A stretch of DNA of 38,895 nucleotides from a virus. Made by a program: the position numbers and the translations under genes. The notes beneath the pieces are model-generated. The model was not told the origin of the DNA. It worked only from the letters and a program-made list of their open reading frames with translations, and searched no databases. How positions within the stretch are numbered: position 1 is the first letter of the stretch; every line of letters begins with the position of its first letter. Positions 2,873-19,535 of this stretch are shown here, in pieces. The stretch is taken from the UHGV virus genome UHGV-2195811. The stretch is one strand, 5' to 3'.

Positions 2873-2934
2873 TATTATATATCAAGCTATAACCAGTAAG
2901 AACTATTTTATCCCCAATAAGGTGGTTCTTACTT

Positions 2935-3008
2935 GGACCATTAGCTCAGCTGGTTAGAGCAAACGGCTCATAACCGTTCGGTCACAGGTTCGAGTCCTGT
3001 ATGGTCCA
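2935..3008 (+). tRNA. tRNA with CAU anticodon (elongator Met or lysidine-modified Ile2; isotype not decidable by eye)
   Basis: GGACCAT acceptor stem, D-arm TAGCTCAGCTGGTTAGAGC, anticodon arm AACGG-CTCATAA-CCGTT, T-arm ACAGG-TTCGAGT-CCTGT, ATGGTCC + discriminator A. No encoded CCA. Confidence 0.85.
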
Positions 3009-3082
3009 TATATTTTTATTTGCAAATAAAATAATAGAGGAGTAGACTTAAAGTATCAAATGTTTAAGGAGTGTTATCTATT

Positions 3083-3334
3083 ATGTCAAACTATGAAGAA
3101 AAAGAAGCAAAAGCATTAGTAAAAATTGCAGATGTTTTGAACAAACTGGATTCAAATTTAGAAGAATTAGATTCTCTAAATGAAGATGCAAAAAAACATA
3201 GTATGAAAAAATGGCTTGTTGAGAAAAGAGCCATGCATGAAATTAAAAAGATTGCACACGAAGCTGGTAAGTATGATAAGTACGATGAAAAAGAATTACA
3301 AAAAGAAATTGAACATGTAGAACAATATATGTAA
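3083..3334 (+). CDS. hypothetical small charged coiled-coil protein (83 aa)
   Basis: ORF with SD AAGGAG ~11 nt before ATG 3083 (track start 3071 is GTG). Ends at a bidirectional terminator. Confidence 0.45.
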   Translation: MSNYEEKEAKALVKIADVLNKLDSNLEELDSLNEDAKKHSMKKWLVEKRAMHEIKKIAHEAGKYDKYDEKELQKEIEHVEQYM

Positions 3335-3914: not shown

Positions 3915-5069
3915 TTAAAAGCCGATGTATTTTGATAGTTTTTCGGTAGTTTTTTCTTTTCCATCATTTGTTAGATGTGTATAAGTATCTAAAGTTGTTT
4001 TTATGTTTGCATGTCCTAATCGTTCCTGAACTTCTTTATGATCTGCACCAGCATAGTATAATAAAGATGCATGCGTGTGTCTAAATCCGTGAAGCCCAAT
4101 GTTGGGTAAGTTAGCCTTTTTACGATAAATATTGTATCTATCTGTAATAGCTTGATTTATTGTAAATTCATTTTCTTCATTGGTGAAAATACGTGAAGGT
4201 TGTGTATAACCAAGTTTAAGAAGATATTTTTTTTGCTCTAATTTCCATTTTTTTAAGATAGTTATTGTTTTTGCATCTAATATTAGTGTTCTGTTTGATT
4301 TTTTTGTTTTTGGAGTATTTGATACATAATAATGGTCAGATTTAGCAATTGTTTTGTTGATTTGTAGTTCACCAGTTTTAATGTTTAAATCGTCCCAAGT
4401 AAGAGCTAACAACTCCCCTATCCTACATCCACTAAAAGCTAATAATCTGAATAATGTATAATCTCTTATTGTAATGTAGGTACTTTCGCTTTGTTCAATA
4501 CTTTTTAAAAATATTTGAAGTTGATCTTTTGTATAGAATTTAATTTTCTTTTCTGATGTAATAATATCTTGATTTTTAGGAACTATTACATTAATCACTG
4601 GGTTTTGATTGGTAACCCCTATGTTAATAGCGAATTTGAAGACTTGATTCATATAATTTATAAAAAGGGGATATTGTTTTGAACTACCTTTTGAATGCCA
4701 TGTATTCACGATTTTCTGACAATAAGCAGTTGAAATTTTTGATATTTCAATTTTTCCAAATGAAGGTAGTATGTGTTTTCTGAAGATTATTTCTGTTCGA
4801 GAGTAGCTACTTTCTTTTACGGTATTTTTATAATTTTCCAGCCACATAAATGCTACTTCTTGGAATGTTATATTAGTGGAAGAGGGAATGCCATTTTTTT
4901 GAATTTCCATTTCTAACCTTGCTAATGCAATTTTAGCCTCTTTTTGAGTGCGAAATCCTCTCTTAGTTGTATACTTCTTTTTTCCAGTTAGCGGATCGGT
5001 ACCAAGATATGTTTTGAAGTACCATGCTTTTTCACCATTTTTCTTTTGATATTGTTTTATCATTGCCAT
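3915..5069 (-). CDS. int: tyrosine site-specific integrase
   Basis: 384 aa. C-terminal catalytic signature ...HGFRHTHASLL...LGHANIKTTLDTYTHL (R..H-x-x-R..Y). N-terminal SAM-like/AP2-like region. SD AAAGAGG 7 nt before ATG. Confidence 0.9.
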   Translation of the reverse strand: MAMIKQYQKKNGEKAWYFKTYLGTDPLTGKKKYTTKRGFRTQKEAKIALARLEMEIQKNGIPSSTNITFQEVAFMWLENYKNTVKESSYSRTEIIFRKHILPSFGKIEISKISTAYCQKIVNTWHSKGSSKQYPLFINYMNQVFKFAINIGVTNQNPVINVIVPKNQDIITSEKKIKFYTKDQLQIFLKSIEQSESTYITIRDYTLFRLLAFSGCRIGELLALTWDDLNIKTGELQINKTIAKSDHYYVSNTPKTKKSNRTLILDAKTITILKKWKLEQKKYLLKLGYTQPSRIFTNEENEFTINQAITDRYNIYRKKANLPNIGLHGFRHTHASLLYYAGADHKEVQERLGHANIKTTLDTYTHLTNDGKEKTTEKLSKYIGF

Positions 5070-14800: not shown

Positions 14801-14915
14801 TGAGAAGTGAATAGCTATTGGAATAGTATTCTTAGTATAATTTATATCATATAGAGTCGCTGATGAGCAAAGAATAAGCATTTCTTATATATGTTTGGAT
14901 AAATAAAAAAAGCTA

Positions 14916-14931
14916 CTTAGTTTCCGCTAAG
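14916..14931. repeat. hairpin 4 with conserved loop (CTTAG-TTTCCG-CTAAG)
   Basis: 5-bp stem. Preceded by GATAAATAAAAAAAGC. On the minus strand it is followed by T7. Confidence 0.5.
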
Positions 14932-14992
14932 CAACTCTTAAATGATGATATGTTTATTATAAATTATTATACCATAAAAGGAGCGATTTCAC

Positions 14993-15409
14993 TTGATTCT
15001 ATTGTTAAAAGAAGTAGATTTTCGACAAACAAAAGCGAATGCTAGAAATGTGTTGAAGAGTTTTAGACGTTTAGAGCGAATAGCTGGTCGTTCTTTGATA
15101 GATTTAAAATCACCAATTATTACAGAGATGCCTAAAAGCCAAAGACACGGAAACAAAACAGAAGATGCACTGGTACAATTAGCTGATGCAGAAGCAGAAA
15201 GAGATGCAATTTTATCTGCACTTATGGCTTTGAGTTTGACTAGTAGACAAATTCTGCACTACAGTTTTTGTGTGCAGGATCATTACTCTAATTACAAGAT
15301 TGCTAGAGAAGTTGGATATTCTGAAAGAAGTATTCAACGTATGAAATCAGAAGCTTTAATTGAATTTGCTGAAGCGTATCGAAATGGAAAAATAATCGCC
15401 TATAGATAA
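14993..15409 (+). CDS. ArpU-family phage late-gene transcriptional activator
   Basis: TTG start with SD AAAGGAG. LERIAGRSLIDLKSP...LTSRQILHYSFCVQDHYSNYKIAREVGYSERSIQRMKSEALIEFA is the sigma-70 region-4-like C-terminus typical of ArpU/RinA-type regulators. Normally sits just upstream of terS. Confidence 0.75.
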   Translation: MILLLKEVDFRQTKANARNVLKSFRRLERIAGRSLIDLKSPIITEMPKSQRHGNKTEDALVQLADAEAERDAILSALMALSLTSRQILHYSFCVQDHYSNYKIAREVGYSERSIQRMKSEALIEFAEAYRNGKIIAYR

Positions 15410-15800
15410 AATTTTTGGCGGTTTTTTTGCGGAAAGTTGGCGGTTTTTATCAATATTTAGATGTTACTATGGTAGTGTCGAAAGATAAGGAAACGAGGTA
15501 AGGCATGCATTACCTATCTTAGCTCCGTTTCGCTTATCTTTTGAGGCTACCTACAAAAAAATAAAGAATAAGGATGTGGAAAGTCCAGTTCTTTTGGTCT
15601 CGTTTAGTCGTAGGTAGCCAAATATTGCAATAAACTTGGCATTAAGCTTACACGTAGACGTACGCTGAAAGCACTTGTCAAGATAGCGGTATGTAGTTTG
15701 CAAATGATCACTCACAAATCAGACGTTCTCAAACTAAAAGAAATGGGGTGTAATTCCTCTCTCTTTTTCTACAGATCTTTAATGGTACTTGATTGCTTGT

Positions 15801-15826
15801 GTAGGTTCTACTCCTGTCATGTAAAT
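15801..15826 (+). repeat. left direct repeat, tRNA 3'-end-like (T-arm + acceptor strand): GTAGGTTCTACTCCTGTCATGTAAAT
   Basis: 22/26 identical to 17714..17739. Resembles ACAGGTTCGAGTCCTGTATGGTCC of the tRNA at 2935. Confidence 0.45.
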
Positions 15827-15980
15827 CACAGCGATCATTGCTATAGGTAGCTTAATAATCATTCGCCGGTAAATACCTAGTTTACAGCTTGTGGACGGGG
15901 TGTAAAGAAAATCAAGCCATAGTCAAATCTTCATCGGCTGTGGCGTTTATTATTTCATAAACGGAAATAGAATGAAATCT

Positions 15981-16009
15981 TTCAAGATTTACTTAAGGTA
16001 TGATATAAT
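15981..16009 (+). promoter_or_regulatory. extended -10 promoter (TTCAAG-N17-TGaTATAAT) for the cassette gene A
   Basis: TGATATAAT read directly, 32 nt upstream of ATG 16042. Confidence 0.45.
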
Positions 16010-16041
16010 TGCATAAAATCATTTAGAAGGCTGTGTTTTAC

Positions 16042-16851
16042 ATGAAAAAAACTTCTTTAGGCAAATTGATATTGAATATAATTGTCATGATAGCTTTCGT
16101 CGTTTCTCTGTGTACACTAGTTCCAAGCTTTTTTGATAGGGAGCAGAAGGAAAACATCTTTAAATTAACTACTACTTTGATTAGCTTGCTAAGCGGCTTT
16201 ATCCTTTATATTTATAATAATTCAAATACCATGTTTTTTTGGGTTAATAAATTTAGGACGTATTTTTCCTTTAAAACCGTTCGTTGGGAAATGAGTTACA
16301 GAACTCCTGGGCTTTCAATTGAGAATACTAATAAGTTAAAAGAAGAGTTATACCGAATATTAAAAAGTAAAAGTATTCAAATTTTGAAGGATAACAAAAA
16401 AGAAGAGTCTAGAGTTATTAAATTTAAGAATGACAGAGGAATAGAAGCAGAGTTTGATTTGAGATGGAATGAATATGTAGATGACAGATTTTCAATGACT
16501 ATTATATTTAAATCACAAACTTCACATAGAGATGTACGTAAACAATGGTCTTTTTACAGAAATATAATAGAAGAAACTCTTAAGGTGATTTCGGAAGAAT
16601 CGAATTACGATAAAAAACCGTATGAGGAAAAATCCTACTATACGGTATCTTTAAATATGGAAAAAAATCCTTTTTACCTACTAACAATTAAAACTTACGA
16701 TAAACCTAAAGATATAAAATTCGATCTATCTTTTAAAATAGATGGAGTCAATTTCAAGACTACTAACAAAAAAATTGTACTTACAACAAAAGATATAACA
16801 AAAGTTGATACAGTTTTAAAGGATTATGTTATGTTAGGGAAAGTCAGCTGA
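16042..16851 (+). CDS. cassette gene A: membrane protein, 2 N-terminal TM helices + ~200-aa soluble domain, no recognisable family
   Basis: ATG 16042 (track start 16033 is GTG) with AGAAGG upstream. TM1 LILNIIVMIAFVVSLCTLVPSFF, TM2 LTTTLISLLSGFILYIY. Lys/Asn-rich C-terminal domain. AT-rich codon usage. Confidence 0.6.
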   Translation: MKKTSLGKLILNIIVMIAFVVSLCTLVPSFFDREQKENIFKLTTTLISLLSGFILYIYNNSNTMFFWVNKFRTYFSFKTVRWEMSYRTPGLSIENTNKLKEELYRILKSKSIQILKDNKKEESRVIKFKNDRGIEAEFDLRWNEYVDDRFSMTIIFKSQTSHRDVRKQWSFYRNIIEETLKVISEESNYDKKPYEEKSYYTVSLNMEKNPFYLLTIKTYDKPKDIKFDLSFKIDGVNFKTTNKKIVLTTKDITKVDTVLKDYVMLGKVS

Positions 16852-17515
16852 TTATTTTGATAATAGCTCGTGCTGCGTTCAAAAAAGGATTCTCATTATC
16901 AATATCATTTAGAGAACTATACATTAATAGTGCCCCAGCCTTAGTAAATCCAATAGTTCGTTCTTTCTGTAAAATATCCATTTTACCTATTAGGAAAGTA
17001 GCAGTGTCATCAGTCAATGCTTCCCCAGCTTCTTGATTTGCCTCTACATTATCGCCAGTGAAGCGTTTTTTCTGAACACCTTCTTCTTCCGTGGTAAAGG
17101 CAATCCCTCTTGTTGAATTTAACTTAGTTTGGATTGTTTTGAAATCAAAAATAAAATTGCTAAGTTTAACTTTAGAGGGCTCTGTCTCTTCTAGTGTTTT
17201 GAAGAAGTTACGAGATATCGCTGATGGTGCTGTGGAATATAAGACTTTGTCTGTGGTGTCATAAAAAACTTTAAAAACTTCTGAACGCTTATACTCATTA
17301 ATAGCTTGTAATTCAGCGTCATCGTTAAGTACAAAGATACTTTCGTTTATAGTTTCCATAAATGTAGCATTGAATACTTTAAATATTCTTGATTCTACAG
17401 TCAAAGTTTTTGGGCTGTCAGGAGCGATAGTACCTAGTACGTTGTTGTCATCTGAAAGTGATATTGGCTGACTAATATCAAATTTTTGAACTCTTTTCAA
17501 TGTTAATGATTGCAT
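16844..17515 (-). CDS. cassette gene B: soluble 223-aa protein, no recognisable family
   Basis: Strong SD ATTAGGAGGA 7 nt before ATG. Minus-strand promoter TTTACT-N17-TATAAT. Its stop overlaps the gene A stop by 8 nt (convergent). Confidence 0.6.
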   Translation of the reverse strand: MQSLTLKRVQKFDISQPISLSDDNNVLGTIAPDSPKTLTVESRIFKVFNATFMETINESIFVLNDDAELQAINEYKRSEVFKVFYDTTDKVLYSTAPSAISRNFFKTLEETEPSKVKLSNFIFDFKTIQTKLNSTRGIAFTTEEEGVQKKRFTGDNVEANQEAGEALTDDTATFLIGKMDILQKERTIGFTKAGALLMYSSLNDIDNENPFLNAARAIIKIIS

Positions 17516-17619
17516 AAGATTCCTCCTAATTATATTTAATAATTACATTATATAATTAGGAAGATTAATAGTAAATAATTTATTTCGATATTGTTTTATT
17601 TATATGAGTTGAATTTTTA

Positions 17620-17644
17620 GTCATCGCTTATGCGGTGACTTTTT
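17620..17644 (+). terminator. plus-strand rho-independent terminator (GTCATCGC-ttat-GCGGTGAC-TTTTT)
   Basis: Would terminate gene-A read-through only after it has run antisense across all of gene B. Confidence 0.5.
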
Positions 17645-17667
17645 ATAATGAAGAATTTTTTGTTTTT

Positions 17668-17739
17668 TAATATCGTTGTATAGCTCAATTGATGAGAGTT
17701 TAATTAAGTATATGCAGGTTCGACTCCTGTCATGTCAAT
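17668..17739 (+). pseudogene. tRNA-like remnant (D-arm + T-arm + 3' acceptor strand, no anticodon arm); contains the right direct repeat 17714..17739
   Basis: TAGCTCAATTGATGAGAG (D-arm-like) ... GCAGGTTCGACTCCTGTCATGTCA. No complementary 5' acceptor strand, so not a functional tRNA. Confidence 0.4.
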
Positions 17740-18102
17740 AAGCAACTTTTGCTGCTTAAATAAAAATCGTCAATAAATGTTTCTTACTTTAATGATCGGT
17801 TCACCTCCTTTCAGAATTAGCCAGCCTGCGGAAACAGGATAAAGTGGCTAGTAACCTAGTATTGTTAAATAAGTGTTAGATTGGCTAGGCAGTCTAATAT
17901 AAATCTTTAGACTACTCAATAAAAATGAGTGGTCTTTTTTTGTACATAAAAAAGCCACTAGACTATGGGATCTAGTGGCTAGGTAGCATTCGTGCACAAT
18001 TTTTGTTGATTACTATTTACAAAAAGGAGTTGCTACCCATAAATAGTATAGCAAGAAGTGATTTATTGAATCAAGTACATAAAACAACTAGGAGAGAAAA
18101 AT

Positions 18103-18336
18103 ATGAAAAGCTATTGGTACGTATCGCTAACACATAAATATCCACAGCCGAACCGCTCAGCCGATGCAGCACGTGTCGTAATGTCTGTGCAGATAAAAAA
18201 GAATGCTTCAATTGTTGAAATGACAAGAGAAGCCACACCAAAGGAAATTGACGCGTGCAAGCTTGTCTATTGTGGGCATGGCTATTTTGATGAAAAGAAC
18301 ATTCAAGACAACATTAAGCGAAACATGAGGGATTAG
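18103..18336 (+). CDS. hypothetical protein (77 aa)
   Basis: SD AGGAGAG. Stop 2 nt before the ParB-methylase start. Confidence 0.5.
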   Translation: MKSYWYVSLTHKYPQPNRSADAARVVMSVQIKKNASIVEMTREATPKEIDACKLVYCGHGYFDEKNIQDNIKRNMRD

Positions 18337-18338
18337 AT

Positions 18339-19535
18339 ATGAATATTGAAAAGATGAAGTTATCAGAACTACGCCCTGCTGAATATAATCCAAGGGTTGA
18401 ATTAAAGCCAGGAATGGAAGAATACGAGAAGCTTAAACAATCCATTTTGGAATTTGGCTTTGTTGATCCACCAATTTTTAATAAAAGAACAGGAAATTTA
18501 GTTGGTGGCCATCAACGTGTATCGGTAGCAAAAGATTTAGGAATTGGCGAAATTGAAGTATCTATCGTAGATTTACCTATCGAAAAAGAAAAAGCTTTAA
18601 ACATAGCTTTAAATAAAATTTCTGGCCAGTGGGATGAAGATAAATTAGCTTTGCTATTAAATGAATTAGATGAAAACGAACTTAATATATCAGGGTTTAC
18701 TGATAAAGAAATCCAAGAGGTTATTGATCAGTATGATATGCGGCTAGATTTGGAAACAGAAGCAATAGATGATGGATTTGAATTTGAGTTACCTGAAAAA
18801 TCCAAAGCAGCTTTAGGCGATATTTATCAATTGGGAAGACATCGATTAATGTGTGGAGATAGCACCAATAAAGCACATATAGAGTTATTGATGGATGGAG
18901 AAAAAGCGGATTTATTAATCACTGATCCACCGTATAACGTAAATTACGAAGGAAAAACAGAAGCAGCATTAAAAATTAAGAACGATAATAAAACAGCCAG
19001 TGAATTTTATGATTTTTTAAGAAGTGCATTCAGTTCAGCTTATGATAATTTAAAAGAAGGTGCTTCTTTTTATGTTTGGTATGCATCATCTGAAGTAATT
19101 AATTTTGTTAATTCGTTGGTAGATTCTCAATTTATGGTGAAACAAGAACTTATTTGGTTAAAAAATTCTTTTGTTCTCGGGAGACAAGATTATCATTGGC
19201 AACATGAACCTTGTTTGTACGGATGGAAAAAAGATGGAAGTCATCGTTGGTATGGAGATAGAAAACAAACTACTGTCCTTGATTTTGATAAGCCAATAGC
19301 TAATAAAGAGCATCCAACTATGAAGCCTATTCCTTTATTCGATTATCAAATTAAAAATAGCTCAAAAAAAGGAGATAAGATACTAGATATATTTGGAGGA
19401 AGTGGTACAACGATGATTGCATGTGAACAAAATGACAGGCAAGCTTATTTGATGGAATTAGACCCAAAATATGTCGATGTAATCATTAATCGTTGGGAAG
19501 AGTTTACAGGTAAAGAAGCTATAAAACTGAATTAA
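18339..19535 (+). CDS. ParB/Srx N-terminal domain fused to N6/N4 DNA methyltransferase
   Basis: N-terminus LRPAEYNPR...GGHQRVSVAKDLG (ParB-like). C-terminus LITDPPYNVNYEG (motif IV DPPY) and ...FGGSGTTMIACEQ (motif I). Confidence 0.8.
   Translation: MNIEKMKLSELRPAEYNPRVELKPGMEEYEKLKQSILEFGFVDPPIFNKRTGNLVGGHQRVSVAKDLGIGEIEVSIVDLPIEKEKALNIALNKISGQWDEDKLALLLNELDENELNISGFTDKEIQEVIDQYDMRLDLETEAIDDGFEFELPEKSKAALGDIYQLGRHRLMCGDSTNKAHIELLMDGEKADLLITDPPYNVNYEGKTEAALKIKNDNKTASEFYDFLRSAFSSAYDNLKEGASFYVWYASSEVINFVNSLVDSQFMVKQELIWLKNSFVLGRQDYHWQHEPCLYGWKKDGSHRWYGDRKQTTVLDFDKPIANKEHPTMKPIPLFDYQIKNSSKKGDKILDIFGGSGTTMIACEQNDRQAYLMELDPKYVDVIINRWEEFTGKEAIKLN

Follow-up and report, generated by a model that had tools for sequence, protein, structure and literature searches.

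The window analysed here is the whole stretch of the UHGV virus genome UHGV-2195811, 38,895 nucleotides (nt) in length, and is a phiFL1-type (Phifelvirus) prophage of Enterococcus. Between its ArpU-family late regulator gene and the terminase lies a cassette of ~1.7 kb (~15930-17647) composed of two convergent genes, here called A and B, which overlap by 8 nt and are bracketed by two direct repeats reminiscent of tRNA genes (Table 1). Gene positions, strands and overlap agree with the original prediction, which had been made from the sequence alone, and so does the promoter-like site of gene B. The putative promoter element of gene A, TGATATAAT, is likewise read where it had been placed, and is absent from the output of a simple -35/-10 scan. 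A terminator scan detected no terminator between the two genes on either strand, the first plus-strand terminator after gene A lying past gene B, as anticipated. The product of gene A has two hydrophobic N-terminal helices, predicted to be transmembrane, and that of gene B has no hydrophobic helix, again in agreement with the earlier description.

The A/B pair is a mobile and strictly paired module. In 17/17 kinds of locus examined the two genes stand tail to tail, their 3' ends ranging from a 23-nt overlap to a 30-nt gap, and these loci belong to seven genera of Lactobacillales (Enterococcus, Streptococcus, Lactococcus, Lacticaseibacillus, Limosilactobacillus, Leuconostoc and Trichococcus) with protein identities of ~25-35%. 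At every locus examined the partner of B is an A-family protein; eight representative partners, compared with a profile built from Enterococcus A proteins only, matched at E values of 1e-9 to 1e-131, all of them being members of the A family. An exhaustive profile search found relatives of A in 73 clusters at 50% identity, nearly all of 250-270 amino acids (aa) and matched over their full length, and B has 45 relatives, all in Lactobacillales; a search of viral contigs with protein B returned the same phage only. At the DNA level the cassette is 86% identical to contigs L079 (over 15930-17647) and L080 (15970-17641), 82% identical to L081 and L082 (15973-17598), and 71-73% identical to the Enterococcus prophage contigs L005-L014 within 16207-17598.

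In Enterococcus prophages with unrelated replication and packaging modules (L005-L014, L079-L082) the pair always lies between an ArpU-like or DUF722 regulator and the terminase, and the same holds for Leuconostoc prophages (L083, L084). It stands between integrase and repressor in Streptococcus phage Javan59 (L002), between integrase and a cI-like repressor in Streptococcus suis prophages, a Trichococcus prophage and one further prophage contig (L086-L088, L074, L085), and a few genes from the integrase, in a regulatory region with no repressor annotated, in the Streptococcus satellite Javan743 (L003). Outside prophages, the pair adjoins an N6-methylase and an integrase fragment in Lacticaseibacillus (L071-L073), and a type I restriction enzyme (HsdR) and transposases in Limosilactobacillus (L076); the surroundings of the Lactococcus locus (L077) are not clearly those of a mobile element or of defence genes. 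The original proposal of an accessory cassette, horizontally mobile and placed between ArpU and terminase, is therefore borne out by the presence of the pair in prophages with mutually unrelated modules and at other accessory sites as well.

The predicted structure of B, built on a 36-sequence alignment, is of high confidence, with a predicted local distance difference test score (pLDDT) of 91.8 and a predicted template modelling score (pTM) of 0.85. Compared with viral models by Foldseek, it gave 14 matches at E <0.001 and probability 1.00, six of which are named RdgC or recombination-associated protein and two exonuclease, the rest being nameless. RdgC, IML3 and CHL4 are the structural relatives published for RexA (PMC11077077). 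The structural comparison that had been suggested along with the original prediction thus assigns to B, as modelled, an RdgC/RexA-like fold, consistent both with the two-domain, RdgC-like fold of RexA and with that of RdgC itself.

Protein A is basic (isoelectric point 9.4, that of B being 4.9), and the positive-inside rule suggests that its soluble domain of ~190 aa is cytoplasmic. Neither A nor B has a match in Pfam, PADLOC, PHROGs or NCBIfam, and the profiles of both proteins matched none of the PDB sequences. Two candidate affiliations of A were considered and rejected. The SLATT/DUF4231 family (PF14015) was discarded because it scored 15.2 bits against a cut-off of 24.7 and was weakly matched in only one of 68 family members. 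The other is Abi-alpha (EF2833, DUF4393) of an Enterococcus faecalis prophage, for which an abortive-infection phenotype has been demonstrated (PMC6356687, where lactococcal and streptococcal superinfection-exclusion systems are also mentioned). It resembles A in being an E. faecalis prophage accessory gene of similar size (272 aa); unlike A, it is a single gene, and A has no Pfam match to DUF4393, which is not among the 25 most often matched of the 50 Pfam families that the 68 A-family members hit.

The two repeats (15800-15826 and 17713-17739) are identical at 24 of 27 positions. The repeat itself is real, as first described, its count of 22/26 being wrong, since 23 positions agree over the 26 nt that had been compared. 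A 20-mer, AGGTTCNACTCCTGTCATGT, has exactly two copies in the window, and two matches were obtained in 0/100 shuffles. What had been said of the tRNA-likeness of the repeats stands for the right copy, which is preceded by a D-arm: the Rfam tRNA model (RF00005) aligns to 17674-17738 at 22.1 bits, which is under the gathering score (29); in this alignment the acceptor stem is broken and the anticodon region shortened. The left copy is merely a 3' fragment, for which Rfam reported no tRNA. Neither copy folds as a cloverleaf, in contrast to the intact tRNA of contig L038 used as a control (-20.6 kcal/mol), and ARAGORN called only a tRNA-Met (2934-3009) in the window and nothing at either repeat. 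Aligned with intact Lys/Glu tRNAs of related prophages, the right copy has lost its 5' anticodon stem through a 9-nt deletion; its 5' acceptor strand is mutated, and a C has become T in the 3' acceptor strand. Because both copies read CATGT where the intact relatives read CACGT, the two must be related to each other.

The origin of these repeats becomes apparent from related contigs, defined by scanning viral contigs for the T-loop of a tRNA with the conserved downstream flank AAAATCGTCAATAA behind it; apart from the contig that is nearly identical to the window, this yielded 29 contigs of related Enterococcus prophages. One intact tRNA occupies the slot in 29/29 of them, namely Asn-GTT, Arg-TCG, Trp-CCA, Lys-TTT (L038) or Glu-TTC (L047); in phiFL1B (L001) an intact tRNA-Asn is found at 3235-3307, with ~225 nt separating it from ArpU on its upstream side. 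Normally, therefore, a functional tRNA gene opens the slot that extends from ArpU to the terminase, and variable accessory genes come after it in the relatives. That relatives carry one functional tRNA gene at the repeat site had been named in the original prediction itself as an outcome contrary to insertion by an integrase. The window is mosaic around this slot. On the left, 14801-15776 shares 87-94% identity with L036, L051 and L062, which are tRNA-Trp contigs, the similarity ending ~20 nt before their tRNA; on the right, 17678-18001 is 90% identical to L047, starting from the 5' end of its tRNA-Glu; in this comparison the intervening 15777-17677 is matched solely in the near-identical contig L004/L029.

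The slot tRNA has been lost in the window prophage, and two decayed remnants flank the A/B pair. The most economical reading of the source of the repeats is that differing versions of the slot, a site prone to recombination, recombined with each other and that both tRNA copies then decayed. That the conserved A/B pair is mobile and that the repeats are relics of the tRNA slot is regarded as highly probable. As a general caution, tRNA-like direct repeats round an accessory gene need not denote integration; here they denote a tRNA slot at which phages of this group are prone to recombine.

The explanation first put forward for the repeats was that the cassette entered a tRNA gene of the phage at its 3' end by means of a site-specific recombinase, the two copies being attL and attR. 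Such an event could account for a 24/27 direct repeat of tRNA-3'-end origin bracketing an accessory segment, as is seen with integrative elements at tRNA 3' ends, and for the CATGT common to both copies as opposed to the CACGT of intact relatives. Between the repeats, however, there are only genes A and B and no integrase or recombinase gene, neither protein matching a recombinase family. The polarity is also reversed, for it is the right junction that has the 5' half, with acceptor and D-arm, of the tRNA, whereas insertion into a tRNA 3' end would put this half on the left, and recombination of repeat with repeat would give a 3' fragment only and no rebuilt tRNA. Nor do the repeats travel with the cassette: its homology to other carriers stops at ~15930 and ~17647, at least 100 nt short of the left repeat and ~65 nt short of the right, and at least 12 other carriers, including L005-L014, L079, L081 and L082, have no repeats. 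The flanks, moreover, match different versions of the slot, the left flank the tRNA-Trp version and the right flank the tRNA-Lys/Glu version, and both copies, unlike those of integrative elements, are defective, being pseudogene remnants of the slot tRNA of the phage. Integrase-mediated insertion with duplication of a tRNA 3' end is thus very improbable and largely refuted. A scan of viral contigs with the repeat motif for an empty site or a source tRNA returned tRNA-Arg or tRNA-Leu in large (~125-170 kb) phages and one unrelated contig; no empty site was found in this collection, which is viral only, the sole related contig with the motif being the same phage. tRNA relics beside the A/B pair were also looked for in the Enterococcus prophage contig L005, and none was found.

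Several further features of the slot are worth recording. The identity of its tRNA varies among otherwise similar Enterococcus prophages, and the downstream flank is common to all of them. The tRNA-Lys of L038 and the tRNA-Glu of L047 are built on one scaffold with three differing positions, the anticodon included, which looks like an anticodon switch. In L080 a tRNA-like gene (160-245) scores 37.1 bits with Rfam, above the gathering score, and has a 22-nt insert in the anticodon region and no ARAGORN call; it lies ~300 nt upstream of the cassette that is 86% identical to that of the window, and a second tRNA-like stretch appears to precede it. In the window, 15817-15832 and 16030-16045 form a 16-nt inverted repeat (15/16 complementary) through which the start-codon region of gene A could base-pair with the end of the left tRNA relic, in read-in transcripts from upstream only and not in those from the promoter of gene A itself; L079 and L080 do not conserve the repeat, which may be due to chance.

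The flank 3' of the tRNA holds a 16-mer, AAAGGAGGTGAACCGA, which is present in two copies in the window, on the minus strand at 17796-17811 and on the plus strand at 1652-1667, the latter differing by one from the position first given. Its interpretation as a recombination scar can be dismissed, as it sits in the post-tRNA flank common to L034, L043, L047, L048, L052, L063 and L067. Taken on the minus strand (17790-17815), the 16-mer is perfectly like a ribosome-binding site, and a start codon follows it neither in the window nor in relatives; the plus strand has CACCTCCTTTC, which resembles the 3' end of 16S rRNA. In the same flank, the hairpin GCCACTAGACTATGGGATCTAGTGGCTAGGTAGC at 17947-17985 reappears at accessory-gene boundaries in many of the related prophages, with two related copies in phiFL1B (L001, ~4360-4400 and ~4525-4560), and may act as a bidirectional terminator and a recombination junction.

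As for the function of the pair, defence or exclusion, the type of role originally suggested, is the best-supported one, backed by the RdgC/RexA-like fold of B and by the genomic contexts. The latter are typical of prophage defence genes, the pair being found before the terminase, in the gap between integrase and repressor, and beside HsdR and transposases or an N6-methylase and an integrase fragment. By analogy, the best reading is that A/B would be a Rex-like exclusion system of a new sequence family. A sensor and an effector are proposed because an RdgC/RexA-fold protein with an obligatory membrane partner, a lysogeny-side or defence-island site and horizontal spread resemble, taken together, lambda RexAB and the actinophage Rex-like systems. 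Protein B would be made in the lysogen from its own promoter and would sense the DNA of an invading phage, or its replication or recombination intermediates; it would then activate A, which would disturb the membrane so that infection stops. The anatomy of the cassette, its mobility and strict pairing, the fold of B, the membrane anchor of A and the source of the repeats emerge from the analysis itself, whereas defence activity, DNA binding by B, an interaction of A with B and membrane damage by A are all inferred here. In Pseudomonas putida, a 'RexAB-type' defence was assigned from a RexA-like fold and a membrane partner without detectable RexB homology, and experiments afterwards confirmed it (PMC12894663).

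Lambda RexAB and the Rex-like systems (gp30/31 of mycobacteriophage Sbash, gp43/44 of Gordonia phage CarolAnn and P. putida PP_5643/5644) have in common with A/B a two-gene prophage module in which a soluble protein of RdgC/RexA fold is joined by a membrane protein, and the partner in P. putida is likewise devoid of sequence similarity to RexB. As with the lysogeny-side accessory genes of lambda, where rexA is oriented as the repressor gene, B (and only B) is oriented like the cI-like repressor in the Streptococcus and Trichococcus prophages. In contrast to these systems, A and B have no sequence similarity to RexA or RexB, A having no PADLOC match to RexB with a control that worked; B has 223 aa against 279-372 aa for RexA and the Rex-like proteins; and the hosts of the pair are Lactobacillales. 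Unlike lambda RexAB, which is co-transcribed with cI, the two genes converge with overlapping 3' ends and have their own promoters. Judged by sequence, the pair is outside the RexA, RexB and RdgC families; it would work most like a Rex-type system, from which it differs in three respects, namely effector architecture, gene orientation and host group.

A number of observations weigh against a Rex-like system. The alignment of B with lambda RexA by hhalign has a probability of 0.1, and B has no PADLOC match to RexA, the RexA model finding lambda RexA at E 9e-110 as a control; nor does the Pfam RdgC family (PF04381) match B or any of the 36 family members, with E values up to 1 allowed. Structurally, B is closer to RdgC than to RexA, so that it could be a recombination modulator instead, and it is acidic overall. 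The model of A is only moderate (pLDDT 70.9), its soluble domain matching generic folds only, and A, with two transmembrane helices and a cytoplasmic domain of ~190 aa, is unlike RexB, which has 144 aa and four such helices. Finally, A and B converge and do not form an operon, which is unusual in a two-component system. The whole explanation, i.e. a mobile pair in a tRNA slot, flanked by relic repeats and acting in Rex-like exclusion, is evenly poised in the light of all this, and a Rex-like mechanism of defence, taken for itself, is plausible and somewhat short of probable. More tentative, and rather doubtful as a whole, is its fullest version: an unrecognised Rex-like abortive-infection family, widespread in prophages, satellites and defence islands of Lactobacillales, in which an RdgC-fold DNA sensor would control a membrane effector of a new type, with two transmembrane helices and a TBP-like cytoplasmic domain, and in which the obligatory tail-to-tail layout would set the ratio of sensor to effector by transcriptional interference. 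The last point, an adjustment of A to B by their layout that would parallel the dependence on the RexA:RexB ratio, is speculation by analogy.

The main rival is that B serves the recombination or switch control of the prophage itself, independently of A. The two genes would then have linked but separate roles in the prophage life cycle, B as an RdgC-like modulator of RecA and recombination or as a RexA-like switch factor, A in superinfection exclusion or in lysis timing, with no coupling of a sensor to an effector. It is in favour of such roles that RdgC is the best structural match of B, that each gene has its own promoter with no co-transcription, and that the integrase-repressor site also houses lactococcal and streptococcal superinfection-exclusion genes. 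RdgC restrains RecA (as summarised in PMC11077077), and lambda RexA, according to the same article, acts on the bistable switch without RexB. Yet the strictness of pairing and of tail-to-tail order at all loci examined, across seven genera and at low identity, argues for a functional dependence between A and B, and a prophage-switch role makes little sense for those pairs that adjoin restriction-modification genes outside prophages. The large domain of A, provided that the protein has two transmembrane helices, would be cytoplasmic and unfit for a block of DNA injection at the surface. RdgC, be it that of E. coli (2OWL) or phage-encoded, also differs from B, which is ~75 residues shorter, falls outside the Pfam RdgC family and is always paired with A. 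RdgC, for its part, is not known to depend on a membrane partner. Separate roles for the two proteins are thus unlikely.

An addiction module of toxin-antitoxin type, in which A would be a membrane-damaging toxin and B its neutraliser under convergent antisense control, would stabilise the element rather than defend against phages. A small two-gene module found on many mobile elements, with overlapping convergent transcripts, no intervening terminator, and one membrane and one acidic soluble partner, would suit it. With 269 and 223 aa, however, the two proteins are large in comparison with classical membrane toxin-antitoxin pairs, neither matches toxin-antitoxin or defence models, and the fold of B is DNA-clamp-like and not antitoxin-like. 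Such a module, which is improbable, overlaps mechanistically with abortive infection, from which sequence cannot separate it. Least credible is that A and B are ordinary conserved genes for phage replication, structure or packaging: although the packaging genes come directly after them in prophages of Enterococcus and Leuconostoc, they are missing from most close relatives (e.g. phiFL1A-C, whose slot holds other genes), occupy other positions in Streptococcus and Trichococcus prophages, in the satellite and at non-prophage loci, and match no PHROG family.

Should the Rex-like reading of A/B prove true, two protein families now devoid of annotation would be given a function. If the pair is a working exclusion system, prophage defences with an RdgC/RexA fold would extend from Proteobacteria and Actinobacteria to lactic acid bacteria and enterococci, hosts in which phage resistance matters, both in strains used for dairy and fermentation and in phage therapy directed at Enterococcus. 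A membrane partner unlike RexB could, in addition, help explain how Rex-type sensors trigger their effectors.

Table 1. Features of the slot between ArpU and terminase in the window, with the basis of each assignment
Feature	Position	Strand	Basis or remarks
ArpU-family late regulator gene, left anchor of the variable slot	14993..15409	+	95% DNA identity to phiFL1B gp34, annotated 'transcriptional regulator ArpU family'
Conserved non-coding flank, preceding the slot tRNA in relatives	15410..15776	+	87-94% identity to L036, L051, L062; tRNA-Trp begins ~20 nt beyond
Left tRNA relic, T-arm and 3' acceptor strand only, without 5' half	15800..15826	+	24/27 match to right copy; same place as the intact tRNA of relatives
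Mobile A/B cassette: gene A promoter, both genes, gene B promoter, terminator	15930..17647	.	Bounds by DNA homology
Extended -10 element TGATATAAT, putative gene A promoter	16001..16009	+	Sequence reading; conserved in L079, L080
Gene A, 269 aa, proposed membrane effector	16042..16851	+	Two N-terminal transmembrane helices, amphipathic helix, basic alpha+beta domain
Gene B, 223 aa, proposed DNA-binding sensor	16844..17515	-	Soluble, acidic, RdgC/RexA-like fold
Promoter-like site of gene B, TTTACT-N17-TATAAT	17547..17575	-	10/12 consensus matches
Intrinsic-terminator-like hairpin and T-run, right end of cassette	17619..17640	+	Terminator scan; conserved in L079
Right tRNA relic, pseudogene of Lys/Glu-type slot tRNA	17674..17739	+	Rfam 22.1 bits; alignment with L038 tRNA-Lys, L047 tRNA-Glu
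Conserved flank 3' of tRNA, with 16-mer 17796-17811 (-) and hairpin 17947-17985	17740..18001	+	90-92% identity to L034, L043, L047, L048, L063, L067

On either side of the slot, some neighbouring features may be added. The non-coding region that follows ArpU (15460-15620) contains nested inverted repeats, 15471-15489/15533-15551 and 15545-15561/15603-15619, which are conserved in L036, L051 and L062 and could represent a structured RNA, or else a late-promoter or regulator-binding region. On the 3' side, 18103-19535 holds a short, conserved phage gene (phrog_1202, 77 aa) and a gene for a 398-aa protein in which a ParB N-terminal domain is fused to an N6/N4 DNA methylase; in the prophage contig L010, a similar methylase follows the A/B pair.

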